Source: an uncultured Candidatus Saccharibacteria bacterium (GTDB taxonomy: Bacteria > Patescibacteriota > Minisyncoccia > Phycocordibacterales > SBAW01). From it: a stretch of 64,000 nucleotides of DNA. Of the stretch, positions 7,203 through 58,824 are shown piece by piece. Under the pieces are notes generated by a model that was given only the letters and a program-made list of their open reading frames with translations, ran no database searches and was not told the origin of the DNA. Numbering within the stretch: position 1 is the stretch's first letter; each line of letters opens with the position of its first letter. The stretch covers positions 21,588 through 85,587 of the forward strand of contig CAYHDT010000001.1 in the NCBI GenBank assembly GCA_964355655.1, read 5' to 3'. Both the position numbers and the translations under genes were made by a program.

Positions 7203-9395
7203 TTATACTTTTGGACTAATAATCTCTGCTTTATTTGTTTTTTCGATTTTCTTTTCAAGCTCTTTCACATGAGTGAGTCCATCATTTACTGTTTGTCTGG
7301 TTGCAGACAAAGTCGCCATGGTGGACGTGTCTCGGGCAAGTCGTGCGTCCTCAAATTGTTTGGTGACTTCTTTCAGTTTTGTTCCGAGTCCATCCTTTAG
7401 GTCTTTAATATTGGCATCCTTTATTGTAATGCCTGCCGCTAGCGTAGAGGTAAGAGTTGGAATTCCTCCCAGTTTTGTATTGATGTCTCGCAAAAGTTCA
7501 ATTTCTTTTTGCGCTTGGCGTACCATAGCGTGAGGAGAGTGGTTTTCATAATTGGCGTGCGCTTCATCTTTTTGTTGCTCATTCATTTTTTCGAGATCGC
7601 TCATTATCTTGCTCTGGCTTTCGGTAAAGATATGAGATAGGGTTTTTATGTGGTCGGCATCCAAGGTTCCCATTTGACGTTTATCCAGCGCTTGTAAACG
7701 CCCAAGGTCTGTTGCGTCAATACCTTTTTCAGCTTTATCGCCTGCGGCGATATTCCTTTCAATAATAGGCTTTATTTTTGAAGATAACTCACGATTCTCG
7801 ACGTCTCGTAGGTTGTTGCCCATCTCTTTGTTGCGGGTATCAAGGAACTCTTTTCGCACTTTGTAAGACGAAGCAACGGTTCCCAAAGACGTTTCAGTCA
7901 TGGGTTTAAGCACATTTTTGTTGAGCCGGTATCCTACCGTGCCCAGAGCTTTGCCCCATAGAGTTGAGCGATCGTTTGCCCATCTGCTGCCGGCTACACC
8001 CTTGCTGGCCGCATTTGCAAGTCGGCCACCCGTCTGACGGTATGCAGCGCCGGCAGCCCAGCCAGGGCCCCATTTGGCAGCAGATTTGCCGGCATTAAAT
8101 ACTCCACCACTGACAGTAGAGGCGATACTGCTTCCCTCTTTGACCACCCAGTCCGAAACCTTAAGCGCCACGTACATAAGCGCGATGATGAACCCCATGC
8201 GGATAAACACCGCCGCTATCGTACCCATCGAGGCTATTTCAGAGCCTCCGGCTGTGGCATTCCCCGCAGTGTTGGCGATGGCGTTCATAAGGCTGGTGCT
8301 GGCGCCGCCGGTGGTTCCTCCGGAGAGTATATCTCCCGAAAACCGGGTGAGAATAAGGAACATAAAGAGGAATATCGCCGGGTAGGCCGAAAATTCGATT
8401 AGCTTCCTCAACCATTGATGAAAAAAGTGCGCGGTCTGTGGCATCGTGCGTGCCACAAAAGCCAACGGCGAGGCTATAAGCAAAAACCACAGTCCCACGA
8501 TACGGAGCAAAAATTTGATTCCCACCTGTACAAAAATGAAGAAGAGCATCCACAACATGACCGCAACCGACAGATAAATGACGGTAAAGGTCCCCAGCGC
8601 TGCCCATGCTCCGCTGGAGAAGACAGATTGGTTTCCGCCTATTTGGTCGAACATTTGCTTGCTAAGCAACACCTGCGGGCCTACGGCCCCCATGATAGAG
8701 GTGCTTAGGTCTTTGACGCCGTTTATCTGCACTATTTTCCCGTCCGTCCCCGTCCCGGCGGGTATCGCATTATAAAATTGGAGAGCCAGGATGTTGCCGG
8801 TGTCTATCGCCACCCGGGTAAAAAAGAAGCTAAAGTTGACCAGGAGCGCGACAAGGACCACGACCGCAAGCGTTTTTATTGTCCCCGCGGTTTCCGCCTC
8901 TAGCATGACCATTACGGCGATGTAGATAAGGATAAAAATGAACGTCATGTTGGCGATATCGCGCACGGTCTCCCACCCTTTTGACAGGAAGTCCAGCGCG
9001 TAGGCGGTGCTGTTGAGCGACAGTTGTATGACGATGCTGAAAAAGTAGGCACCAATGTAGGCGACTTTGGTGGCCAGCATGGGCCCGACGTAGTACATAA
9101 GCACCGTAAGGCATTGCGTAATGCCGTTGCACTCAATTTGGGTAGAAGGTTCTTTGAAAGAGTTTTTAATAGCCTCTCCGGCTATATAACCAGTCGCCGA
9201 CCCGAGTAGTGGTACTGCATGAGCTTTTGGCGCACCAATAGGTGCCATGCTCGCTAAAAGCATCGCGAGCACAATACCGGGGATTATTTTTTTACTTAAA
9301 CGCATTGCATTGTTGGAGCTCGTCGGCGGTTTGTTGGTTGCGCGAGGCAAGCGCGCTTTGGAGCGTTGTCCGGTCTTGTGTCGCGTTGGTAACAT
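7203..9395 (-). CDS. VirB6/TrbL-like polytopic membrane protein with a long C-terminal coiled-coil/charged domain.
   Basis: At least 6 TM helices over about 400 aa, then a Lys/Glu-rich helical tail. An alternative start at 9305 (MRLSKKIIPGIV) is possible. Confidence 0.6.
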   Translation of the reverse strand: MLPTRHKTGQRSKARLPRATNKPPTSSNNAMRLSKKIIPGIVLAMLLASMAPIGAPKAHAVPLLGSATGYIAGEAIKNSFKEPSTQIECNGITQCLTVLMYYVGPMLATKVAYIGAYFFSIVIQLSLNSTAYALDFLSKGWETVRDIANMTFIFILIYIAVMVMLEAETAGTIKTLAVVVLVALLVNFSFFFTRVAIDTGNILALQFYNAIPAGTGTDGKIVQINGVKDLSTSIMGAVGPQVLLSKQMFDQIGGNQSVFSSGAWAALGTFTVIYLSVAVMLWMLFFIFVQVGIKFLLRIVGLWFLLIASPLAFVARTMPQTAHFFHQWLRKLIEFSAYPAIFLFMFLILTRFSGDILSGGTTGGASTSLMNAIANTAGNATAGGSEIASMGTIAAVFIRMGFIIALMYVALKVSDWVVKEGSSIASTVSGGVFNAGKSAAKWGPGWAAGAAYRQTGGRLANAASKGVAGSRWANDRSTLWGKALGTVGYRLNKNVLKPMTETSLGTVASSYKVRKEFLDTRNKEMGNNLRDVENRELSSKIKPIIERNIAAGDKAEKGIDATDLGRLQALDKRQMGTLDADHIKTLSHIFTESQSKIMSDLEKMNEQQKDEAHANYENHSPHAMVRQAQKEIELLRDINTKLGGIPTLTSTLAAGITIKDANIKDLKDGLGTKLKEVTKQFEDARLARDTSTMATLSATRQTVNDGLTHVKELEKKIEKTNKAEIISPKV

Positions 9396-11277
9396 CCGCT
9401 TCGGTAATAATAGTCCCCGAGGCGAGCGCGCTCTTGTAGGCGGCGGTCACCGCCGCGACATCCGCCGCCGAGGCCACGCTTAAAGCTTTTGTTTGCAGGT
9501 CTTGCAGGACTGCAATGCCCGTGTTGGCGCGCGTGATATTGGCGTTATACGCGTCTATCTTCGGGTCGTACTGGTGGAGCGCAAACACCGCGTTAAAGGC
9601 GTGCGTCTGCGCTATTTTTTGTTTGTCCTCGCTTAAGCTCGGGCTCGACGAAGCCGCTTCCCAGCAGTTGGCCAGCGACTGTAGCTGCGACTGTGCGCTT
9701 TGGATGTCCGCGATAGACCCCTGCTGTGTCGAGCCGTATTGCTGGGCTATTTGCACCTTGCCTTGCATGTCGGTCAAAAGAGCCTGCGCGTCGGCCTGCG
9801 CCTGCTGCTGCGCCGGGGTCAAAAAGTTGGACGCGTAGCCGCTCTGGCCGCTGAGTTCGGAAAGTCCGCCCTGCAAGGTCCTAGTCATAAGCTGGGTAAT
9901 AAGCGCGCTGATGATTTCGTCAAAGCTTTTGGCCAAGTTGAGCGAGTCTTGGCTCACGCCGAGCGTCTTGTTGAGCGACTCAGCAATGGTCGAGCCCGGG
10001 GTTGTCACAACGGTATTGCAGGTGCGATACTGGCCCCCTTCTATGGCGGTTGTCTTTTGGCCCGGTCTTGTACCGCCGGCCGGCGGCCCGCTGGTAACCG
10101 TGCAGTTGACCTCCTTGGTCGAAGAGATAAATCCTCTGCCCAGAATATAATCCTGCTGTCTCTGGCCTACCGCTTGGTTTTGCGCGTTTGTAAGCCCTAC
10201 CTGCGCGTAGGCAAATGCGCCGAAGGGGTTGTTGGTTGGTATGGAGGTAAATTGCAACAGGCCGCCCCACCCTCCTTGGGAGAAGTTGCCGTTCATAAAG
10301 CCGGTAACATTTTTTATGATGCTGGTAAGACTGCAGGACATCGCTCCTTGGCGCGCGTAGCTTTGCGCTATGGCGACGCGTATTTGCAACTGAAACGGCG
10401 AGCAGAGGAACGAGAGCGACGAGCCGCGGATAAACTCCCCCGCCGCTTGGTCGGCCACATTGGTAAAGAATTGCTGGTAGTTGCGCACGAACGACGGCTG
10501 GCCGTTAAAACCGGAGTTTATCCAGTTGACGACGCTCGCCGTTATTTGCTGTATGGCGGCGCGCGCAATGCCGCGCGCGATGCAGTTTAAAAAGTTGTCG
10601 CGCACCGTGTCGTTAGTTTTGAGCGTGTTGCCGTAGGCGGTTTGAGCGTTAAGCGCAATATCGTTGACCGGCACTGCCACGAGCGTGTTGCCAACGATCA
10701 GCGTTCCTCCTATGCCGCCGCCAAGAAGGGCGCTTCCAAATAAACTTGCCGTGCACGATACTGCGCCGGCAATACCGGCCCCCAAGAGCGCGGTGCCAAG
10801 CCCGAGCCCGCCGCCATTGTCGTCGCCGGGCCCTCCGCCGCCGGAGAATATATAAGGGGTGCCCGAAACATTGTTGTTGTTAAGGTCATTTATTGTTTTC
10901 GGGACAAAGTTTGTAGTCGGCCCTCCGCCTCCGCCGCCCGTCCCTCCGCCCCCTCCCCCGAGCCAGTCCACTCCGGGGATGTTTGCTATACCCCCGGCTC
11001 CGCCGGCTGCTCCACCCGCGCCGCCGGTACCACCCCCGCTGCTCTGTATCCCGGTTCCGACGTTAGTATTCGAGCCTGTCGGCAGGGTCCCGGAGGAGGA
11101 ATTGTTGGCGTTTGTACCGGTACCGGTCGAACTTCCCGGTTTTAGCTGCCCGGTGCCGAAGGTGCCGGTGGTTGCGGCGGGCTTTACCGTCGCGCGGAAG
11201 AAGAAAAACCAGACGAGCCCGACCACCAGCGCAAATAGTGCCGCGGCAATGATGATAATAAGAGTGCGCCTGTTCAT
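9292..11277 (-). CDS. Membrane-anchored protein with Gly/Thr/Asn-rich low-complexity regions (T4SS cluster).
   Basis: N-terminal TM IIIIAAALFALVVGLVWFFFF. Long GGGTGG/NNNN tracts, then a Cys-containing globular domain and a Q/A-rich C-terminus. ATGA overlap with the upstream gene. Confidence 0.6.
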   Translation of the reverse strand: MNRRTLIIIIAAALFALVVGLVWFFFFRATVKPAATTGTFGTGQLKPGSSTGTGTNANNSSSGTLPTGSNTNVGTGIQSSGGGTGGAGGAAGGAGGIANIPGVDWLGGGGGGTGGGGGGPTTNFVPKTINDLNNNNVSGTPYIFSGGGGPGDDNGGGLGLGTALLGAGIAGAVSCTASLFGSALLGGGIGGTLIVGNTLVAVPVNDIALNAQTAYGNTLKTNDTVRDNFLNCIARGIARAAIQQITASVVNWINSGFNGQPSFVRNYQQFFTNVADQAAGEFIRGSSLSFLCSPFQLQIRVAIAQSYARQGAMSCSLTSIIKNVTGFMNGNFSQGGWGGLLQFTSIPTNNPFGAFAYAQVGLTNAQNQAVGQRQQDYILGRGFISSTKEVNCTVTSGPPAGGTRPGQKTTAIEGGQYRTCNTVVTTPGSTIAESLNKTLGVSQDSLNLAKSFDEIISALITQLMTRTLQGGLSELSGQSGYASNFLTPAQQQAQADAQALLTDMQGKVQIAQQYGSTQQGSIADIQSAQSQLQSLANCWEAASSSPSLSEDKQKIAQTHAFNAVFALHQYDPKIDAYNANITRANTGIAVLQDLQTKALSVASAADVAAVTAAYKSALASGTIITEADVTNATQDRTTLQSALASRNQQTADELQQCNAFK

Positions 11278-12191
11278 TGTGGTGAGTATGAAGGAAGAAA
11301 AACGTCCCAGGCTGCTCCCGGCTCGTCTTTACTGAAAAGTATACCGCTCTTACGCAGTTGTTCGGCCAGCGTTGTCAACAAACGAGAGGCTTCGGTTCCG
11401 GAAGTTTGAAATAGCTGCAGGCCGGCAAGCCCCCGCATCGGGTCGTCTATAACAGTCTTCATTTCGCCCGCGGCAACCGACATTTTGGAAAGGTTATTAA
11501 GCAGCTGCAGATACAAAGGAGCAACGGTCGATGGAACCGGCATGCTTGCAAGGTCGTCGGCAAGCGCGGCATACGCCGCGCCTATGGCGGTAAGCGGGGC
11601 AAGCGCCGAAGCATCACCGTAATCGATCGCTTTTCCTATAGCCAGAAGAGCCTCGTCATTGTTGGCGCGCGGGTGGCCAAGAAAAGTTTTCATAACCCCG
11701 TTTCCCCACTCGTGCAGGCTGGTTGGTGTTTGGCTTATCATCGTGAGGTTGCTCGCCGTATATGCCGCCGACACGTTTTTCTCTACCTGCGCGGCGGCGT
11801 CGGCTATAAGCTTTTCTTGCGTCGGTAAATCACTCCCCAGTCCTTGCGCCCCCGCATCGCCGAGGTTAACAAACAGCGATCGGGCAATCGAGTTAGTGAC
11901 ATTGGAGCTTTGTGCCGCTGTAAGCATCGCCCGGACGGCCGTTTGGTCCGGCGCCGCGGGGAGCCCCGGCGCCTGCGCCTGTATTGCGTCTAGGGATGCC
12001 TGCCAATTTTCTGTTTGTGGAGCGCCGCTCGCGGTCAAAAGTACGGAGGTGGAGGCAGATTTGGGACTGGTCAGGTACTGCGCGCCGATAATAAGGCCCC
12101 CAGCAAGCGCTACCGATAAGACAATGCCTGAAAATCGCGAACTGGGGAGATAAGCACGAACGTCCATGCATCCAGTATATAATGGAAACAT
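11274..12191 (-). CDS. Hypothetical membrane-anchored protein (first gene of the minus-strand T4SS block).
   Basis: TM GIVLSVALAGGLIIGAQ near the N-terminus, then an Ala-rich soluble domain. An alternative start is possible at 12167. Confidence 0.5.
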   Translation of the reverse strand: MFPLYTGCMDVRAYLPSSRFSGIVLSVALAGGLIIGAQYLTSPKSASTSVLLTASGAPQTENWQASLDAIQAQAPGLPAAPDQTAVRAMLTAAQSSNVTNSIARSLFVNLGDAGAQGLGSDLPTQEKLIADAAAQVEKNVSAAYTASNLTMISQTPTSLHEWGNGVMKTFLGHPRANNDEALLAIGKAIDYGDASALAPLTAIGAAYAALADDLASMPVPSTVAPLYLQLLNNLSKMSVAAGEMKTVIDDPMRGLAGLQLFQTSGTEASRLLTTLAEQLRKSGILFSKDEPGAAWDVFLPSYSPQ

Positions 12192-12579
12192 GCTTCACTT
12201 CGCCCGTCTTTATACGATAGCTGCATTGCTGGTAGTTTTACTTATCCCGTCGCTCAGTTCGGCGAGCCTCGGCTCCAGTGTTACTCCCTGGCTCCCCGAC
12301 CCTTTTGGAGGTACTGTGATCTCTGTCCTCCCGTGTCTCACTGCCCCAGGCTTTTTTGCAGTCAACATGATAGAGCGCCTCTCCATACCGCCCTATTTTA
12401 CCTACAGCACTTACATACTGAGTCCACTTTCCCCGTTCCTCTCACATGTACCTCCACATCCAGGCCAGAACGTCATTGGTAAGTCTTTTGGTATGTACTC
12501 CTGTATTATCGACCTCAATCCGAAACATTACGTGGTCTGGTTTGAGCCGTTCTCAGTCTTTTATGGCAGCAGCCTCTAG
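12166..12579 (+). CDS. Possible small secreted protein, antisense to and flanking the T4SS block (speculative).
   Basis: ORF with a signal-peptide-like N-terminus (TIAALLVVLLIPSLSSASLG). No clear RBS. Lies in an AT-richer gap between minus-strand genes. Confidence 0.25.
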   Translation: MHPVYNGNMLHFARLYTIAALLVVLLIPSLSSASLGSSVTPWLPDPFGGTVISVLPCLTAPGFFAVNMIERLSIPPYFTYSTYILSPLSPFLSHVPPHPGQNVIGKSFGMYSCIIDLNPKHYVVWFEPFSVFYGSSL

Positions 12580-13346
12580 CCTTCGGCGAGTTTGAGCCAT
12601 TGCTCTAAAGGCACATCCTCCGCGCGCGCCTTGTCGTCTATTGCAGTCTTTTGCAAAACACTAGCATAGCCGGGGCCGAGGTTGTTCTTGAGAAATTTTC
12701 TTTTTTGAGCGAAACCTTTCTTCACCGTTTCAAAAAATCTTTTCTCGTGCGCGGCGTTGGTAAAGTTTTTCCGTGAAATATTTTCCACCGCGAGTATGGC
12801 GGAGTCGACTTTCGGCGGCGGGGAAAACGCGCCCGCCGGCACGGTCTTAATATATTTTGGCGTACCGTATGCCTTAATCGAAAGCGAGAGTATCGATTCT
12901 TTTTTTGAGCGCGCGATACGCTCCCCCACCTCTTTTTGGATTAAGAACACCAGCGTCGTAGGCTGATTGGTTCCGGATAGAAATTTTTTAAACAGCGCGC
13001 CCGTAATGTAGTACGGAATATTGCCGACTACTTTGTAGCCCCGACGCAAGGTCGGGACCCCGACCAAGGCGTCGGGGCTGCTGAGGTCAAACTCCAGCGC
13101 GTCGCCTTCTATCACTTCGAAATCTTTACCTGCAAACTTATCCCGCAAAAAAGAAATCAATCTTGAATCTTTTTCTATCGCGACGACCTTTGCGCCGCGC
13201 TCTAAAATGACGGAAGTCAGACTTCCGTCACCGGGGCCTATTTCCAATACCGTCTCCCCTTCCTTTATATGTGCGGCGTCGACAACCGCCGCAAGGTAAG
13301 CGTCCGAGTTCAAAAAATGCTGCCCGAGGGATTTTTTCTTAAACAT
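12576..13346 (-). CDS. rsmA: 16S rRNA (adenine1518/1519-N6)-dimethyltransferase.
   Basis: LGQHFL motif, SAM-binding VLEIGPGDGSLT, about 256 aa. Confidence 0.9.
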   Translation of the reverse strand: MFKKKSLGQHFLNSDAYLAAVVDAAHIKEGETVLEIGPGDGSLTSVILERGAKVVAIEKDSRLISFLRDKFAGKDFEVIEGDALEFDLSSPDALVGVPTLRRGYKVVGNIPYYITGALFKKFLSGTNQPTTLVFLIQKEVGERIARSKKESILSLSIKAYGTPKYIKTVPAGAFSPPPKVDSAILAVENISRKNFTNAAHEKRFFETVKKGFAQKRKFLKNNLGPGYASVLQKTAIDDKARAEDVPLEQWLKLAEG

Positions 13347-24530: not shown

Positions 24531-25808
24531 TTAGTGCGTACTTAGGTAGCTCCTGGTTATCGGTCCAAAATTCCCCAGAGCAGGGCTAATCCCTACCTGT
24601 GTTTGGAATTCAGCCAGTGCCGCACGAGTGAGAGGGCCAAAGTAGCCGGTTGGGCCAACCGTGGCCAGAGTGCGGGCAGGTGAGCCTTTGTTTTGAGAGA
24701 TTAAGAATTGTTGGAGAATCGTCACGTTGTTGCTCCGGATTCCTTCTCCCAAGTTGACCGCTATCGCTTTGACCTGCTGTCCAAAAGCAGAAGCGGAAGG
24801 CGTGTATGCGGGAGTTTGATTCTCGGTTTGCATCTGCTGTATAGCATTGAGTGCGGCAGATTGGCCGGCCCCGGCGGAAATAAGCTGGTTGTACTGTTGC
24901 TGTTGCTGAGCAGTAAGCGTCGGAGTCGCGGTAGGCCCGGAGCTTCCTTGTGACCCTGTTTGTGTCGGGTTTGTTGAAGGAGTTTGTGCAGGTGTTGGAG
25001 TCGGAATAGGCGAAGGTGTAGGAGCGGGGGTTGGAGTTGGGGTTGGGGTTGCCGACTGGGCGTAAACAATAGTGACCGCATTTGAATCTAAAGTAACCGC
25101 AGTCTGTGCCAAGGCCCTGCCTTGCAGGCGCGCGCCGGTGTTTAGTACGATTGCTGTTTGGTCCAATATATTTCCGCTGAAGTCGGCGGTCGTACCGATG
25201 GTCGTCTGCCCGGCGACGACCCAGAATATGTTCCCTGCTTGCGCGCCGCCACTAAGGACTATGCGCACACCCGAGCTCACGGTAAGCGTCTGCGCTATCT
25301 GGAATATCCAGACATCGTTTGCGTTGCCGGAGAGTGTTACGTCCGTCGGTATGGTGACACCCGTACCCCATTTGTAGACACCGGGAGCCAGTGTCAGTCC
25401 GCCGATGTTTCCGGCGCCCAGTTCGGTAATTCCGGCGGCTCTTCCCGCGGCGTCGGTATAAGAGGTCTGCATGTCGAGCACTGCCGTGGTTAGGTTGGCA
25501 GGAGTCGGATTGGCGTAGTCAGACGCGTATACCTTTCCTGTTACTAGTGCCGAGGTTGAAAACGCGCTTGCCGCAGGAAGTATCAGCGCGAATCCGGTGA
25601 TATAGCTTGCGGCAGAGGGGCTTACGCCGATGTCGCCGACCACAGAAGTGGCTCCGGTGGTTGAGATTCCAGTTTTTGCAAGAATTACGAAGGCGCTGGC
25701 AGACCCAAGGTTGACAGTTGCAGGCGAGGCCGCGAGCGTAACCACCGGCAACAATCCCACAATGAGCGCAAGCGCGAGCGATCCAAGCGTGTAAGTGTAT
25801 TTTTTCAT
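24531..25808 (-). CDS. Secreted DUF3494 (ice-binding-like) domain protein with a Pro/Thr linker and a C-terminal PG-binding domain.
   Basis: N-terminal LGSASAFVILAKTGISTTGATSVVGDIGVSP matches the ice-binding-like family signature by eye. PTPTPTPAPTPSP linker. C-terminal GYFGPLTRAALAEFQ. Confidence 0.6.
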   Translation of the reverse strand: MKKYTYTLGSLALALIVGLLPVVTLAASPATVNLGSASAFVILAKTGISTTGATSVVGDIGVSPSAASYITGFALILPAASAFSTSALVTGKVYASDYANPTPANLTTAVLDMQTSYTDAAGRAAGITELGAGNIGGLTLAPGVYKWGTGVTIPTDVTLSGNANDVWIFQIAQTLTVSSGVRIVLSGGAQAGNIFWVVAGQTTIGTTADFSGNILDQTAIVLNTGARLQGRALAQTAVTLDSNAVTIVYAQSATPTPTPTPAPTPSPIPTPTPAQTPSTNPTQTGSQGSSGPTATPTLTAQQQQQYNQLISAGAGQSAALNAIQQMQTENQTPAYTPSASAFGQQVKAIAVNLGEGIRSNNVTILQQFLISQNKGSPARTLATVGPTGYFGPLTRAALAEFQTQVGISPALGNFGPITRSYLSTH

Positions 25809-25810
25809 TA

Positions 25811-26899
25811 CTACTTTGTTTTGAAGTTTATGACCTCGCCGCGGACAGTCCCGGCGGAGTTTTGCGCCACGGTGCGATAGTAGTAATTGGTGTTTGAGCG
25901 CAGAGCGGTGACATTCGCCTCAATCGAAACGGTAGTCGCGACTTTACCGGCCGAGCGGTGCGTGGTCGTCTTGAGCGCGCTGGCGAAAGAGGAGTCAGTA
26001 CTGTATTCGAACCAGTATGTTGTCTGGATGCTGGACGGGTTGACTGTGCCGCGCAAGGTGGCGGTGGTTGTGGCGACCGGTCCCGCGACCAGGGTTGTAA
26101 CCACCGGTACCGCGGTCAGCGGCGGACCCGCTGTCGTAAAGGTGAGTATGGTGCCGTTGGCGGTACCGAATTGATTTTGCGCGTTAAGGCGGAAGTAGTA
26201 GGTTGTCGCGGGAGCAAGACCGGAGAGCGACACTGACTCGGAAATTTTGGCGCTGCCGTCGCCGGCCGACCGGACCGTGCTGACTTCGCCCAGGTTGGCG
26301 GAAGTTCCGTACTCAAACCAATAGTTTGTCGCTACTTTATTCGGAGTTACTTCTCCGTTAATTTGAGCGGTCGTGCGAGACAGATTGGTTGCGGCTATTG
26401 TCTTGGCTACGGGCGCGCTGCCTACCGGAGCCGGAGTGCTTGCGTCGGTGCGGAAGGTGTAGGTCGTGCCGACAGATTTGCCGACCGAGTTTTGCGCAAC
26501 CAGACGGAAATAGTAGTTTGTACTTTTAGTAAGTCCCGCAATGTAGGCCGGTGCCGCAAGATTGGCGTATCCGGAGCCGATAGTCTGGGCGGTAGAGGTA
26601 AGCCCGAGGTTGGCCGATGTGCCGTATTCATACCAATAAGTCGTCAGTGCTCCGTTTGGCACTACTCCCCCGACAACGACAGCGCTGGTGGCGGTCGGGT
26701 TAACGGTTGCATTGGTCGTGGCGACCGGAGCGCCCGGCGTCTTAACCTGCGGTGTCGGCACGACCCCTCCTCCGGTAGTAGTGCCTACCGGCGTCGAGGT
26801 GGCGGTCGGAGACGGATTATTCTGCGTGTACCAAAAAACTCCCCCGATCAATATAAGCACCACTACAATTCCTCCTACGATAGCCGCGGTATTATTCAT
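25811..26899 (-). CDS. Membrane-anchored protein with 3-4 fibronectin-type-III-like repeats.
   Basis: N-terminal TM. A repeated unit of about 90 aa containing TTYW(F/Y)EYGTSANLG and ATTYYFRL. Confidence 0.6.
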   Translation of the reverse strand: MNNTAAIVGGIVVVLILIGGVFWYTQNNPSPTATSTPVGTTTGGGVVPTPQVKTPGAPVATTNATVNPTATSAVVVGGVVPNGALTTYWYEYGTSANLGLTSTAQTIGSGYANLAAPAYIAGLTKSTNYYFRLVAQNSVGKSVGTTYTFRTDASTPAPVGSAPVAKTIAATNLSRTTAQINGEVTPNKVATNYWFEYGTSANLGEVSTVRSAGDGSAKISESVSLSGLAPATTYYFRLNAQNQFGTANGTILTFTTAGPPLTAVPVVTTLVAGPVATTTATLRGTVNPSSIQTTYWFEYSTDSSFASALKTTTHRSAGKVATTVSIEANVTALRSNTNYYYRTVAQNSAGTVRGEVINFKTK

Positions 26900-30144: not shown

Positions 30145-31392
30145 TTAGGCGACCGCATAGCCGCCCGTCTTGGTGTCGAGGTCGAAGTTGGCCTCGATGA
30201 AGTTGATGACTTCCTGCGGGTCGATGTCCTTGTTAAAGACAAGGTTCGGCCCATGGTGTTCAAGATACACCGCGAGCAAGTTGCCGAAGCACCGCAGCCC
30301 GCGGCTGGTGTTGCGACCGCACTCGTGGCTGCCGCACTCGTACTCGCGCTGCGAGATAGTCGGCACGCGCGAGCCCGGCTTCTTTTCGCAGTGGAAGTGG
30401 ACGATGCAGTCCGCCTCCGAATGCTCGGTAAACACAATCCGCTGTGACTGCCCGCCGACCGACGGCTTGCTGCCGTACGCGATGACCGAATCCGGCCCGT
30501 CCGTCCGCACCTTTACCAGCCCGACGTTCCTCATATCGTTGAAGTCCGTCTTGCGTCGCGAGGTAAGAAAGGTCTTCTCATCGAGCTTGGCCGCAAAGTG
30601 TCCGGCCGTGACGCCACGCACTTTTTTGTAGGCGCCCCTGCCGATGCAGTAGTCGACGACCGCCCGCAGACTTGCCGGCACTTCAGCCGACTCCCACGCC
30701 ACGGGCTCGCCGGCAACGACCGTCGAGCGGGTAAATGTGAGATGCGAGCGCAAGTACGCCATCTCGACCAGCTCCTGCAGAGCAGCGTCGCGGTCGGTGG
30801 TGACCGCATACGTTGCCTCTTCCGGCACGATGATCATGTTGGCCTTCGACTTGCCGTCGTTTGCGAGCACCAGGTTGGCGCTCGCGCGCTTGAGCATGTT
30901 GAGTCCTTGGCGGTATTGCTCTTCCTGCGAAGCGCCGTAGGTCTGCTTGAATGCGACGAGGAAGATATCCTTGCGCTCTTTGCGGATCATTTGCACGATC
31001 TTTTCGCTCGGAGTAAGCATCAGGCGGTATGTCTGCGGAGTGCCCGCGTCGTCCGACGTACGGAGCCTGCCCGCACTCTTGCCGCTCTCCAGCTCGTCCG
31101 CACTGCCGTCGAAATCCACGATTGCCGGATTAAAGAAGACAATCTTGGTTGTTGGATTGCCGACGAGCCCTGAAACAAACCTCTTCATGTCCTCGTTGGT
31201 GTCGACGAGGCTTGCGGAGTCGGCCATGTTCGTGAGCGTCAGCCGCACGTCCATGGTTTGGTCGTGCGCCTGGTACAGCTCGGCAATCTGCCTTGCCGTG
31301 TTGCCCATGGCTTTGGAGCCCAAGTACAGATGCGAGTCGATATGGAAGCGGGTGCCTCCGCCGATGACATGCACAACCTTGTTGGTAGCCAT
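30145..31392 (-). CDS. Two-domain protein: an N-terminal DFP/CoaB-like Rossmann domain fused to a C-terminal class II aldolase/adducin-like domain. The function is uncertain.
   Basis: N-terminal VVHVIGGGTRFHIDS..LGSKAMG and NPAIVDF resemble the CoaB motifs ITAGPTxExIDPVR..SSGKMG and AAVADY. The C-terminal part has KPSVGG and HSEAD..IVHFHCE, like class II aldolase metal ligands. Start at MATNK (31392) with a GGAGA RBS. Confidence 0.6.
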   Translation of the reverse strand: MATNKVVHVIGGGTRFHIDSHLYLGSKAMGNTARQIAELYQAHDQTMDVRLTLTNMADSASLVDTNEDMKRFVSGLVGNPTTKIVFFNPAIVDFDGSADELESGKSAGRLRTSDDAGTPQTYRLMLTPSEKIVQMIRKERKDIFLVAFKQTYGASQEEQYRQGLNMLKRASANLVLANDGKSKANMIIVPEEATYAVTTDRDAALQELVEMAYLRSHLTFTRSTVVAGEPVAWESAEVPASLRAVVDYCIGRGAYKKVRGVTAGHFAAKLDEKTFLTSRRKTDFNDMRNVGLVKVRTDGPDSVIAYGSKPSVGGQSQRIVFTEHSEADCIVHFHCEKKPGSRVPTISQREYECGSHECGRNTSRGLRCFGNLLAVYLEHHGPNLVFNKDIDPQEVINFIEANFDLDTKTGGYAVA

Positions 31393-31394
31393 GA

Positions 31395-31787
31395 TTAGTC
31401 TCCTTTGGTTTGAGTTCTTCGCATCAGAATCTGTTCTTTCCAGAGCTGTTCGAACGCCTCCCTGTCGATGGGGTGCACATTCGAGCCCTCTTTGCATTGA
31501 AAGAAGACTCTTCCCCAGTCCAGCACCGCGAGTCCTTTGTTCATCAGAGTGCTGTAATTGCAGTCGATCCCCAGGATTCGAACGCCTTCTGCTTTGGAGT
31601 TGAAGATTGACCCCAAAACGTCGAATCCGAATGCGTAAGGTAGCTCGCCGCCCTTCAGTTTGATGAGATTGGCCCATCCGGGCTTCTTCTTGTCGAGCAA
31701 GGCTGCTCCCTTCAGGACATAGGAGCGTTGGTCGTCCTTTTGTTCCTCCAAAGCACTTTGTTGGCTCATCGTGGCCTCCTGTTTCAA
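31395..31787 (-). CDS. Hypothetical protein.
   Basis: 130 aa ORF immediately upstream of the fusion gene. Confidence 0.5.
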   Translation of the reverse strand: MKQEATMSQQSALEEQKDDQRSYVLKGAALLDKKKPGWANLIKLKGGELPYAFGFDVLGSIFNSKAEGVRILGIDCNYSTLMNKGLAVLDWGRVFFQCKEGSNVHPIDREAFEQLWKEQILMRRTQTKGD

Positions 31788-31916
31788 TGAACTGTCTTCT
31801 GAACGAAGAATAGGCCTCTCAGTATAGGATTACAATAGTTGTTTATAATCCAGCTGAACACTTGCCAAAATACGTTGTATTATATAGGATAAGAGTTATA
31901 ATTCTATATTGACACT

Positions 31917-32684
31917 ATGCAAGAAACTGCCTCATCCCTTATAGCCTTGGGCCTCACTCCTACCGAAGCGGCCGTCTACCTTGCGGGCCTCTCCTACGAG
32001 TCGGTCACGGTCCAGGACCTGGTTCGGTCGACCAAGGTCAAGCGGCCCACTATTTACCACGCGCTCTCGCGATTGCAGGAGCGCGGGCTCGCCGCAGAAA
32101 AGCGCGTGGGCGAGCGGCTGCGCTTTTATATGTCGCCGCCCCAGAACCTCCATGTATTAGTAGAGGCGCAAAAGCAGCGGGTTGTCGCGCAGGAGAAGCT
32201 GCTCCAGGAGCTCCTGCCCTCTTTGTCCGCCCGGCAAAAGCGGGTCAAGCAAGACGGCGTAGGTGTTGTGCACTACAGTGGCATCGAGGGGATGAAGATG
32301 GTGATGGACATGGCTTTTTACTGCAAGACCAAGCGCTGGGATGTTATCGCCCCCTTTAACAACTTCCTTCGCGAGTACGACTCGGAGTATGCCAAGCAGT
32401 ACTTGCAGTCGCGCAAGTATCACGGCATCATCTCGCGCACTCTGTGGGAGAACACCAAAGATGGGAAACCCCTTTCTGAAGAAGAGAGGAGCGAGCGCAA
32501 TCCGCGGCTCATGCCCTGGGTCATGCACGGCAAGTTTAAGTCGATGATGGTACTTTTTGACGATAAGGTCGCTGTCTTTTCCCCGTATGACAAACTTTCC
32601 GCGGTGCTCATCACCAGCACAGAACTGCACGCGCTCTTCGCGTCGATGTTCGAAGGACTGTGGGAATTTTCGGAGCGATATTAA
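31917..32684 (+). CDS. TrmB-family transcriptional regulator (paralog 1 of 4).
   Basis: N-terminal wHTH LGLTPTEAAVYLAGL..VQDLVRSTKVKRPTIYHALSRLQERGL, and a C-terminal effector-binding domain. Confidence 0.75.
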   Translation: MQETASSLIALGLTPTEAAVYLAGLSYESVTVQDLVRSTKVKRPTIYHALSRLQERGLAAEKRVGERLRFYMSPPQNLHVLVEAQKQRVVAQEKLLQELLPSLSARQKRVKQDGVGVVHYSGIEGMKMVMDMAFYCKTKRWDVIAPFNNFLREYDSEYAKQYLQSRKYHGIISRTLWENTKDGKPLSEEERSERNPRLMPWVMHGKFKSMMVLFDDKVAVFSPYDKLSAVLITSTELHALFASMFEGLWEFSERY

Positions 32685-51414: not shown

Positions 51415-51487
51415 GCGCCCGTAGCTCAATGGATAGAGTACTTGGCTTCGAACCAAGGGGTTGGGAGTTCGAATCTCTCCGGGCGCA
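51415..51487 (+). tRNA. tRNA-Arg (anticodon TCG).
   Basis: Cloverleaf: acceptor GCGCCCG/CGGGCGC, anticodon loop CUUCGAA, T-loop GGGAGUUCGAAUCUCUC. Confidence 0.85.
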
Positions 51488-51541
51488 CAAAAGTGCTCAT
51501 TGTGGATAAATGAACTACCGTTCTGTCCTATATAGTATCAT

Positions 51542-52216
51542 GTGCTTATGAGGAAAGACAAAGAGTTGGCCATCGAATTAAGAAGAGCCGGTAAAAGCTA
51601 TCGGGAAATTAAGAAAGAGATAGGAGTCTCACTCAGTACGCTTTCTCTATGGTTTAAAGATCTCGAATGGTCTAAGGATGTTGGTAGAAAGCTTATTTTT
51701 CAACACATTTCAGATAGTACAACTAGGATATTTGAACTGAATAAAGTCAGAGGTAAGAGACTCGACACCATTTATGAATTGGGGCGCAAGGTTGCGGCTA
51801 AAGAGTTTGATAAACTAAAAACTGATCCCCTCTTTGTAGCCGGTGTGGTGGCCTATTGGGGAGAAGGAGACAAGACTACAAAACATCTATGTCGATTGGC
51901 AAACAGCGACCCGGCGATGATAAGGCTATTTTGGTTGTTTTTGACTAAGAAATGTAGAATTCCAGAGAACAAAATAGCCTGTTGGCTGATCCTTTATCCC
52001 GATTTGGACGAACAGATCGTAAAAAAACAATGGAGCCTAGAAAGCGGAATCCCCGAGAGTAACTTTAGAAAAGCGGTTTTTATAAAAGGTAGACATCCAA
52101 CCAAAAGAAACAAGTATGGTGTCTGTAGTATAGTCGTCCCCAGTCGATTTTTTAAAGAAAAAATGCTACTATGGCTTCGTTTGATAGCAGAGGAGTTCAA
52201 TGCGGATATGGTCTAA
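51542..52216 (+). CDS. HTH-containing hypothetical protein in an AT-rich insert between tRNA genes. Possibly homing-endonuclease-like (weak).
   Basis: N-terminal HTH KSYREIKKEIGVSLSTLSLWFKDL. FVAGVVAYWGEGDK weakly resembles a LAGLIDADG-type motif. The 3' end overlaps the tRNA-Gly start by 15 nt. Confidence 0.45.
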   Translation: MLMRKDKELAIELRRAGKSYREIKKEIGVSLSTLSLWFKDLEWSKDVGRKLIFQHISDSTTRIFELNKVRGKRLDTIYELGRKVAAKEFDKLKTDPLFVAGVVAYWGEGDKTTKHLCRLANSDPAMIRLFWLFLTKKCRIPENKIACWLILYPDLDEQIVKKQWSLESGIPESNFRKAVFIKGRHPTKRNKYGVCSIVVPSRFFKEKMLLWLRLIAEEFNADMV

Positions 52217-52272
52217 TGGTATGACAACTGGTTGCCAATCAGTTAGCGGGAGTTCGATTCTCCCTATCCGCA
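52202..52272 (+). tRNA. tRNA-Gly (anticodon GCC).
   Basis: Acceptor GCGGAUA/UAUCCGC, anticodon loop UUGCCAA, T-arm GGGAGUUCGAUUCUCCC. Confidence 0.8.
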
Positions 52273-52460
52273 CTAAGAAACAGATATTAAAAGACATCCA
52301 GAGTGTGGATAATCAATCCCCTATAAATAAAGGAATATTTAGCATTTCTGTGGATAAGTATGGGGATATGTGCATTAAAGGACACAAAAATACTGTCCTT
52401 CACCTGCCCGACAGGCAATGTGAGTGCCTTTTTAGTGCAAAAACACCAATTTATGTTTCA

Positions 52461-52521
52461 TATGTAACGTTTTACGTGAACCATGTGAACGCGAAATGAG
52501 TGAACGGGAACCATGTGAACG
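52461..52521 (+). repeat. Five tandem copies of (T)GTGAAC(G) immediately upstream of yraN.
   Basis: tatGTAACG, acGTGAACc, atGTGAACG, gaGTGAACG, atGTGAACG within 61 nt. The run ends 7 nt before the ATG at 52528. Confidence 0.6.
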
Positions 52522-52527
52522 AGAATC

Positions 52528-52908
52528 ATGCCTAGTCCAAAGCGCAAAATAGGAGATATCGGGGAGGAGGTTGTGTGTAAATACCTAGAAAGAAAGGGAT
52601 TTCGGGTATTGGAGCGTAATTACCTTAGAAAATGGGGCGAAATAGATATTGTTGCCGAAAAGGGCCCATTGCTTAGTTTTATCGAGGTAAAGAGCGTTAC
52701 ACGTGAAAATGGTTCACGTGCAACATATAGGCCGGAAGAGAACGTGCACCCGGCAAAGCTTAAAAGGCTGCACCGGGCTATACAGACCTACTTATTGGAC
52801 CGAAGGGTACCGGAAGACAGGCCGTGGCAGGTGGATGTGGCTTGTGTTTACTTGGATTTTTCGACCAGAAAGGCTAGAGTAGAGGTATTGGAGAATGTAA
52901 TTCTCTAA
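52528..52908 (+). CDS. yraN: YraN (UPF0102) family endonuclease.
   Basis: IGDIGEEVVCKYLERKGFRVLERNYL..GEIDIVAEKGPLLSFIEVKS signature. Confidence 0.8.
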   Translation: MPSPKRKIGDIGEEVVCKYLERKGFRVLERNYLRKWGEIDIVAEKGPLLSFIEVKSVTRENGSRATYRPEENVHPAKLKRLHRAIQTYLLDRRVPEDRPWQVDVACVYLDFSTRKARVEVLENVIL

Positions 52909-52957
52909 AAGACAAAATAAAAGACACCATTCGTCGCTAAAGCTATGAAGGGCACAG

Positions 52958-53028
52958 CGGGGCGTAGTATACCGGTAGTACAACTGCTTTGGGAGCAGTT
53001 AGACCGAGTTCAATTCTCGGCGCCCCGA
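52958..53028 (+). tRNA. tRNA-Pro (anticodon TGG).
   Basis: Acceptor CGGGGCG/CGCCCCG, anticodon loop UUUGGGA, T-arm CCGAGUUCAAUUCUCGG. It overlaps the 5' extension of the tracked methyltransferase ORF, which was therefore trimmed. Confidence 0.8.
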
Positions 53029-53036
53029 CAAAAGTT

Positions 53037-58693: not shown

Positions 58694-58764
58694 GTGCGGG
58701 ATGGGAGAATCGAACTCCCAACTACAGTTTGGAAAACTGTCGTTTTGCCACTAAACTAATCCCG
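58694..58764 (-). tRNA. tRNA-Gly (anticodon TCC).
   Basis: The reverse complement gives GCGGGAU...UUUCCAA...GGGAGUUCGAUUCUCCCAUCCCGCA. Confidence 0.8.
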
Positions 58765-58824
58765 CTTGCCCTTTCGAAACTTTAGCGAAGTAGGGCGTAC
58801 CCCGTTATACTAAACCATATCAAC

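Follow-up and report, generated by a model that had tools for sequence, protein, structure and literature searches.

The gene at positions 30145 to 31392 of the 64,000-nucleotide stretch analyzed here (the window; contig CAYHDT010000001.1 of GenBank assembly GCA_964355655.1, from an uncultured Candidatus Saccharibacteria bacterium) raises the question of what a protein might do that joins a domain related to CoaB, the phosphopantothenate-cysteine ligase of coenzyme A (CoA) synthesis, to a domain with the fold of the class II aldolases. An earlier note on this DNA, made from its letters, had suggested such a fusion from short motifs and had called the architecture nonstandard. Both proposals were supported by sequence profiles, predicted fold, and conservation, and no single known family was found to extend across the whole protein. 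The target is a real conserved two-domain protein, and strong purifying selection acts on both of its domains. While each superfamily is well known, the fusion, its altered active sites, and its gene context point to an undescribed activity. The combination of CoaB-type nucleotidyl activation with class II aldolase-type metal-enolate chemistry is not described for any pathway.

The open reading frame (ORF) claimed in the earlier note was confirmed on the minus strand, running from an ATG at 31392 to a stop codon at 30145 to 30147 and encoding 415 amino acids (aa). A longer reading of 510 aa, starting at 31677, was set aside; it overlaps a small upstream ORF, orf124 (31395 to 31769). The shorter form was preferred because the alignment of 40 homologues begins at its methionine, because an AAGGAG ribosome-binding site lies 8 nucleotides (nt) upstream of that codon, and because genes called independently in the source metagenome include the same protein at 415 aa. 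The motifs of the target comprise GGTRFHIDSHLYLGSKAMG (aa 12 to 30), AIVDF (90 to 94), KPS (309 to 311), H324-S-E326, and H332-F-H334. All motifs quoted in the earlier note were present, although the "ID" and "SKAMG" part of the first is specific to the sub-branch of the window and has no place in the family consensus, GGGTxSHVRxHLALxAPAYGxTA, derived from the 40-homologue alignment. The exact 415-aa protein was also called in Hainich groundwater 0.1-μm-fraction assemblies; this, together with the genes for PNPase, ComM, and tRNAs that the window contains, shows it to be chromosomal DNA of a bacterium of the candidate phyla radiation (CPR).

Two Pfam domains were recognized, and as sequence matches both lie far beyond chance. 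At the N terminus, DFP (PF04127) aligned to aa 4 to 185 (model positions 3 to 174 of 186) with 36.4 bits (gathering score, 22), and the predicted structure of this domain has the three-dimensional fold of CoaB. The family profile matched PDB 2gk4 by sequence (E = 1.7e-7), and a PDB search with the target as a single sequence gave no match. Residues were mapped with domain-restricted MAFFT L-INS-i alignments of the family to E. coli CoaB (Dfp residues 181 to 406) and two alphaproteobacterial CoaBCs, in which the family N-domains were collinear with CoaB along the entire CoaB domain; the identity of the target to CoaB/PPCS proteins (PDB 2gk4, 4qji, 6tgv, and 1p9o) is ∼15 to 18%. The nucleoside triphosphate (NTP) and metal site of CoaB, made up of the GxT loop, Asp279, and Lys289, was retained. 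Specifically, the glycine-rich loop G12-G13-T14 is invariant in the family (AGPT in E. coli), D93 is invariant and aligns with D279, and a nearly invariant arginine, R109, sits at the position of K289, the lysine that opens the KxKK flap. The remainder of that flap was not kept, the target having G-R-L-R/x-T in its place, while a GF motif and an A-N-D motif (N178 and D179) were also preserved. In Mycobacterium smegmatis CoaB, the equivalent of D279, D281, coordinates the cation bound to the triphosphate of CTP, and the KxKK flap contacts the triphosphate (PMC7794376). Such conservation makes the N-domain look competent for NTP-dependent nucleotidyl transfer.

The residues of cysteine ligation were not retained, the position of E. 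coli R206 being occupied by a nearly invariant leucine (L22) and that of N210 by S26 in the window and alanine in the family consensus. Mutagenesis of E. coli CoaB ties R206 and N210 to the second half-reaction, in which cysteine attacks the acyl-cytidylate. The active-site residues given for M. smegmatis CoaB include their equivalents, R207 and N211 (PMC7794376). Moreover, all CoaB and CoaBC equivalog hidden Markov models (HMMs) scored below their cutoffs (NF005231, 31.4 bits versus 265; TIGR02114, 22.6 versus 217.2; TIGR00521, 20.0 versus 219.7). Pfam found no Flavoprotein domain in the target, as a CoaC fusion would carry; in CoaBC the CoaC flavoprotein is fused N-terminally, whereas here the aldolase fold is fused C-terminally of the CoaB-like domain. 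Judged by its residues, the target is not a canonical phosphopantothenate-cysteine ligase, because the equivalents of R206 and N210 are lost and the equivalog models fail about tenfold.

The C-terminal domain, a trimmed class II aldolase fold of only ∼157 aa, was matched by Aldolase_II (PF00596) at aa 260 to 335 with 30.4 bits against a gathering score of 22.2, with only model positions 17 to 92 of 183 aligned; score and fold together place it in the class II aldolase/adducin superfamily. Mapping to E. coli FucA, by hhalign and a hand alignment, showed that the metal ligands H92, H94, and H155 correspond to H332, H334, and H380, which are invariant in the 40-sequence alignment and, by inspection, also present in divergent members at 32 to 39% identity. 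Two further motifs were invariant in the same alignment: KPSVGGQSQ, whose S311 corresponds to FucA S71, and ECGSHxCGxNT, which stands where FucA has YATFGTRELS. C353 and C358 are invariant and C329 nearly so. Apart from S71, the catalytic and phosphate-site set of FucA (Glu73, Tyr113', N29, T43, G44, S71, and S72) was not found: Glu73 is replaced by Gly313, Asn29 by His265, and T43-G44 by a conserved S-R-R-K stretch, and the Tyr113 segment is shortened from 17 to 6 residues with the Tyr113 part deleted. FucA-type aldol cleavage is not expected because the catalytic Glu73 and Tyr113 are absent. The OtnC model (14.5 bits versus 250) and two MtnB models (12.3 versus 137 and 12.0 versus 226) did not reach their cutoffs, nor did the model of any other characterized subfamily, and E. 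coli AraD and FucA had no phmmer match in the 64-kb window. The target domain differs from FucA, AraD, RhaD, MtnB, OtnC, HMPD decarboxylase, and pyruvic oxime dioxygenase in its short length and in the added S-R-R-K basic patch and conserved cysteines. Such features fit a catalyst that forms enolates with the help of a metal and acts on a new, probably more anionic substrate.

The AlphaFold2 model of the whole protein, built from 40 homologues, was confident (mean predicted local distance difference test [pLDDT], 90; predicted template modeling score [pTM], 0.81), including the inter-domain segment with a pLDDT above 80. Its aldolase-fold part matched 1pvt (13.7), pyruvic oxime dioxygenase (13.3), FucA (13.3/13.2), RhaD (11.8), HMPD decarboxylase (11.3), AraD (10.5), and MtnB (10.2). 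Solved structures gave no match beyond the individual domains, and a Foldseek search against the BFVD viral structures returned noise only. Mean pairwise identity was 76% in the C-domain, 72% in the inter-domain segment, and 57% in the N-domain.

The family is large and widely distributed. In a word-indexed search, the number of homologues exceeded 3,216. Among these, the best 120 were 60 to 78% identical to the target, similar in length, and aligned over nearly all of the query; those with a name were entered as "class II aldolase/adducin family protein" and came from Paceibacterota, Kaiserbacteria, and Vogelbacteria, and most precomputed annotations of homologues list PF00596 alone. Among 50%-identity representatives, an exhaustive search found 509 clusters at an E value of ≤1e-3 and 155 at ≤1e-30. 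The GTDB species genomes contributed 102 loci in Paceibacteria, Saccharimonadia, and other lineages. Metagenome-assembled genomes (MAGs) outside the CPR were labeled Polyangiaceae, Bdellovibrionales, Pseudobdellovibrionaceae, Micavibrio, Rickettsiales, Obscuribacterales, and others, labels that may include mis-binned phage contigs. Going by these labels, the non-CPR cellular hosts (loci L046 to L087) are largely predatory or host dependent, Polyangiaceae/Myxococcales included, and the distribution may be linked to lifestyle. The genes in L043 (Methanobacterium), L023 (Armatimonadota), and L025 (Actinomycetes) are surrounded by many small codirectional ORFs, and these loci are probably phage or prophage DNA or mis-binned; phage origin or mis-binning is likewise suspected, from the label, for the Methanosarcinales loci L021, L029, and L030. 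In IMG/VR, at least 147 viral contigs, many of 200 to 570 kb, carried a family member, and a full-length copy was found in LR756511.1, a 595-kb uncultured huge phage. Cultured phages of Caulobacter (Bertelyvirus) and Pseudomonas (Otagovirus and others) encode homologues of the N-domain only, known as phrog_35624 (E = 8e-38; 31 to 35% identity over aa 1 to 230), which have no aldolase-fold domain. No ADP-ribose genes lie near these N-only genes in the two phages inspected: the copy in Pseudomonas phage PPSC2 is surrounded by genes for ThyX, RNR, and glutaredoxin, and in Caulobacter phage CcrBL9 all neighbors are hypothetical proteins.

Gene context was surveyed in the 64-kb window and in up to 21 kb around each homologue: ORFs were called in all retrieved loci, the six neighbors on either side of the target were clustered and named by Pfam, and the loci were condensed into 125 groups at 90% target identity. 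In 27 of the 125 groups, nearly all of them CPR and the window among them, position -1 is taken by a divergent regulator of the TrmB family (∼255 aa), the commonest neighbor of all. Less frequent were ADP-ribosylglycohydrolase (ARH; 11 to 14 loci), CYTH (8), His_Phos_1 (8 to 9), Thg1 (7 to 8), Metallophos (6 to 8), PARP with WGR (5 to 6), Macro (5 to 7), RNA ligase (5 to 7), NrtR (Nudix plus winged helix-turn-helix; 4 to 5), and NADAR (3 to 9). At least one gene with an ADP-ribose domain was present in 30 of the 125 representative loci. In unrelated phage lineages, at least eight distinct gene orders place the target a few genes from ARH, Macro, PARP with WGR, NADAR, His_Phos_1, CYTH, Thg1, or RNA ligase. 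The clearest cellular case is L041 (Saccharimonadales DASZUC010000010, 2533 to 16723), where the order PnuC, NadR-like, NadE, an uncharacterized gene, NrtR, TrmB, target, HisPhos, ARH, PncA, PncB, Nudix, and HisPhos forms a complete, compact salvage island for nicotinamide adenine dinucleotide (NAD) around the target. Genes of 723 and 269 aa with no assigned function are embedded in this island. In L034, L038, and L050, NrtR, TrmB, HisPhos, and ARH flank the target as in L041, these being the only genes annotated there.

Other neighbors were more restricted. A 127-aa protein with no Pfam or PADLOC match occurred at position +1 or +2 of the target in 18 to 19 groups (for instance, L079, 11762 to 12145), its hosts being mainly proteobacterial and Bdellovibrio-like MAGs and a few phages. 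Between it and the target there is often a small M23-peptidase-like protein, the start of which overlaps the target stop codon in L063. In L097, L101, and L107, which represent one phage lineage (∼11240 to 12630, minus strand), two or three tandem DXD glycosyltransferase genes (Gly_transf_sug/TcdA-TcdB-like) adjoin the target, and PARP with WGR, Thg1, HisPhos, and Metallophos genes are also present.

Considering domains and context together, we tentatively favor, at somewhat less than an even chance, a two-step enzyme for the turnover or salvage of ADP-containing cofactors, with the NAD+/ADP-ribose branch preferred because cells and phages alike show this context again and again, in many independent gene arrangements. 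The N-domain would bind Mg-NTP, which bacterial CoaB suggests to be CTP, and would pass a nucleotidyl group to an oxygen of the substrate, so that an activated acyl- or phospho-nucleoside monophosphate is formed as intermediate. The divalent metal of the C-domain would stabilize the enolate or enediolate of a phosphorylated substrate, and the outcome there could be isomerization, C-C bond cleavage or formation, dehydration, or decarboxylation. The two steps would act on consecutive intermediates of a single pathway, which the neighbors suggest to be the turnover or salvage of ADP-containing cofactors; the substrate may be a ribose-phosphate derived from NAD+ or ADP-ribose, with a 4'-phosphopantothenate or CoA-type compound as the alternative. 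ARH matches were confined to the vicinity of the target (14 within 5 kb versus none at 5 to 10 kb; p = 7e-4), and pooled ADP-ribose domains decayed with distance as well (p = 1e-3), although the families in both tests were chosen for their frequency near the target, which introduces some ascertainment bias.

Besides this bias, several points weigh against an NAD+/ADP-ribose role. ADP-ribose has no carboxylate for an acyl activation of the CoaB type. In Paceibacteria, the window included, no NAD or ADP-ribose gene stands beside the target, whose neighbors there comprise nothing but TrmB, the MaoC-like hotdog protein, and a glycosylase of the HhH-GPD type. Phage auxiliary-gene islands mix unrelated functions, which weakens guilt by association in those genomes, and the ORFs of the survey were called by a greedy longest-ORF procedure. 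Genes of CoA synthesis also occur near the target, if only in 3 to 4 of the 125 groups versus ∼30 with an ADP-ribose or NAD context.

The company of the target resembles that of known phage NAD+ systems. Phage NARP1, NARP2, and NARP3 and the ARG-centered systems share with it ARH/ARG, Macro, NADAR, Nudix-wHTH (NrtR), phosphatases, PnuC, and NadR. According to the published abstracts, NARP1 consists of Adps and Namat, NARP2 of Nampt and Nmnat, and NARP3 of PnuC and a NadR-like protein; the target, with DFP and Aldolase_II as its only domains, belongs to none of the component families named there (PRPS-like Adps, Nampt-like Namat, Nampt/Nmnat, and PnuC/NadR). The ARG-centered systems described in the 2022 survey of viral NAD+-ADP-ribose systems, which are Nudix/WYL regulated and accompanied by phosphatases, resemble the Saccharimonadia loci, and the target protein is not among their components; a text search of the survey gave no mention of CoaB, DFP, or aldolase (Iyer et al. 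2022, PMC9503650). The PADLOC-DB defense-system models gave no match to the target at an E value of ≤0.01, and literature text searches found no description of this fusion family.

A broader proposal, which we hold to be rather doubtful, is an enzyme for the reconstitution of ADP cofactors common to episymbiotic CPR bacteria, predatory bacteria, and huge phages, acting either in a further route for recycling the ADP-ribose-type compounds left by NAD+ breakdown or as a flavin-independent analogue of CoaBC that feeds CoaD and CoaE. In both cases, nucleotidyl activation as in CoaB would be coupled to the metal-enolate chemistry of class II aldolases.

The second of these options can be stated by itself as an alternative CoaBC, which we consider quite unlikely: the N-domain would make 4'-phosphopantothenoyl-cysteine or couple phosphopantothenate to another amine such as cysteamine, and the aldolase fold would serve as a flavin-independent decarboxylase in place of CoaC, giving CPR bacteria and phages the 4'-phosphopantetheine used by CoaD and CoaE. 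Besides the homology to CoaB, the idea draws on gene context. In the viral locus L155 (IMGVR_UViG_3300017766_004476), the gene of a 389-aa CoaD-CoaE fusion (8783 to 9952) lies immediately upstream of the target, its end 40 nt away; the fusion protein is similar to E. coli CoaD (E = 3e-28) and CoaE (E = 2e-6), bears the motifs PGSFDPxTxGH and GxTGxIGSGKS, and, as a union of PPAT and dephospho-CoA kinase, resembles the eukaryotic CoA synthase arrangement. A Thg1 gene lies five genes upstream in the same locus. CoaD is found 7 kb upstream of the target in L122, and it is encoded by many jumbo phages; Bertelyvirus genomes carry both CoaD and the N-only homologue, though not side by side. The gene directly after the target, both in the window and in six loci of other genomes (L009, L010, L011, L013, L017, and L018), as well as in the same-population loci L006 and L007, encodes a MaoC-like hotdog protein, and acyl-CoA enzymes typically have this fold. 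Decarboxylases are also known in the class II aldolase superfamily, for example, 2z7b; OtnC is a second, although here it gave only the weak subthreshold HMM match. The proteobacterial MAG loci L063 and L071 cut both ways: in each, the target adjoins a divergently oriented canonical coaBC (289 and 318 bits in the comparison with E. coli Dfp), which in L063 is followed by a Nudix gene. This ties the family to CoA, yet a genome with canonical CoaBC needs no replacement, and these pairs show that replacing CoaBC cannot be all that the family does. The leucine and Ser/Ala at the cysteine-ligation positions, equivalog scores of 20 to 31 bits against cutoffs of 217 to 265, and the small number of CoA contexts argue against an alternative CoaBC. 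Decarboxylation of 4'-phosphopantothenoyl-cysteine normally needs flavin-mediated oxidation of the thiol, and to our knowledge, a flavin-independent version has no precedent in the class II aldolase fold.

Still less probable is an ordinary carbohydrate enzyme, that is, an aldolase, epimerase, or dehydratase that acts on sugar phosphates and is controlled by a TrmB regulator responding to sugar; the CoaB-like domain would then be no more than a nucleotide-binding regulatory or oligomerization module. The TrmB-family regulator is indeed the most conserved neighbor, the target retains both the three-histidine metal site and the phosphate motif KPS, and the aldolase domain is the only one named in public annotation (PGAP, "class II aldolase/adducin family protein"). 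The regulator modeled from the window, however, is a short TrmBL2-like form without the sugar-binding subdomain; its sensor domain, considered as a clue to the ligand, accordingly gave none. No sugar transporter, kinase, or isomerase recurs nearby, and the strong presence in phages is atypical of a catabolic aldolase. The active site likewise departs from that of such enzymes in the replacement of Glu73, N29, and T43-G44 and the deletion of the Tyr113 segment, the models of MtnB, OtnC, and relatives gave 12 to 15 bits against cutoffs of 137 to 250, and invariant NTP and metal residues in the N-domain are not expected of a passive module. The rest of the probability we assign to some substrate other than those considered here.

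A chimeric ORF produced by frameshift, misassembly, or read-through of two genes has practically no chance of being the explanation: stand-alone N-domain proteins do exist in cultured phages, but the same two-domain protein of ∼410 to 450 aa makes up the 120 listed matches of more than 3,200, full-length matches recur in 160 loci from GTDB genomes and IMG/VR, and the inter-domain segment is itself conserved and confidently modeled within the 40-sequence alignment and the whole-protein model. No split two-gene version was found among the loci inspected. The gene downstream of the CcrBL9 N-only homologue was considered as a split C-domain and showed no similarity, and the gene after the N-only homologue in L008, read by eye, appeared ParB-like with a DGQHR motif. 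Matches to the C-domain alone look like contig-end fragments.

CPR bacteria (Patescibacteria) and huge phages carry a very large share of proteins of no known function, among which this family stands out by its conservation, 60 to 78% identity to the window protein across candidate phyla among the best 120 matches being unusually high. Because it combines two folds of understood chemistry, intact catalytic metal and NTP residues, and informative neighborhoods, its function is directly testable. A step in NAD+/ADP-ribose or CoA salvage, if true, would fill a gap in the upkeep of cofactor pools in host-dependent bacteria and phages, and thousands of database entries named "class II aldolase/adducin family protein" would be corrected. 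The family would also be a new player in the NAD+-centered arms race between phages and their hosts, in which recycling of ADP-ribose could help to counter NAD+-depleting immunity.

The features of the target gene and its surroundings in the window are compiled in the table.

Table 1. Positions of the target gene, its domains, and other features in the 64-kb window
Feature	Position	Strand	Basis or remark
Target gene, CoaB-like/class II aldolase-like fusion, 415 aa	30145..31392, stop codon included	-	ORF, translation, two Pfam domains
N-terminal CoaB/DFP-fold domain, aa 1-215	30748..31392	-	G12-G13-T14 loop, D93, R109, N178-D179
Inter-domain segment, aa 216-258, highly conserved (HLTFTRSTVVAGEPV.W)	30619..30747	-	40-sequence alignment
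C-terminal trimmed class II aldolase-fold domain, aa 259-415, ~157 aa	30148..30618	-	Three-His site and conserved motifs
orf124, small upstream ORF	31395..31769	-	Own AGGAGG ribosome-binding site; stop ends 2 nt before target ATG
AT-rich divergent intergenic region between regulator and orf124-target operon	31770..31916	.	Sequence read directly
TrmB-family regulator, 255 aa: winged helix-turn-helix, long helix, PLD/Nuc-like domain	31917..32684	+	Divergent from target
MaoC-like hotdog-fold protein, 171 aa	29576..30091	-	Directly downstream; Pfam MaoC_dehydratas 28.5 bits versus 27
Ice-binding-like protein with peptidoglycan-binding domain (PF11999, E = 7e-77) and adjacent FN3/purple-acid-phosphatase-N/PhoD-N-like protein	24531-26899	-	
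Four tRNA genes: Arg-TCG, Gly-GCC, Pro-TGG, Gly-TCC	51415-53029 and 58694-58765		

In the window organism, orf124, the target, and the MaoC-like gene would form one transcript, the promoter region of which would be shared with the divergent TrmB-like regulator, probably the local regulator of the target operon. Within 31810 to 31905, this region holds two copies of ATCCTATA and a TTATAA-centered palindrome, I2, at 31892 to 31905, all candidate promoter or operator elements. orf124 had no Pfam match; it was considered as a conserved partner and rejected as lineage specific, since tblastn over the fetched loci gave no homologue outside L006 and L007, two contigs of the same population. The 64-kb window contains no coaBC, CoaD, CoaE, or NadR gene, and apart from the tRNAs, no other Rfam family reached its gathering score there. 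The ice-binding-like protein and its FN3/PhoD-N-like neighbor are probably surface proteins of the CPR cell.

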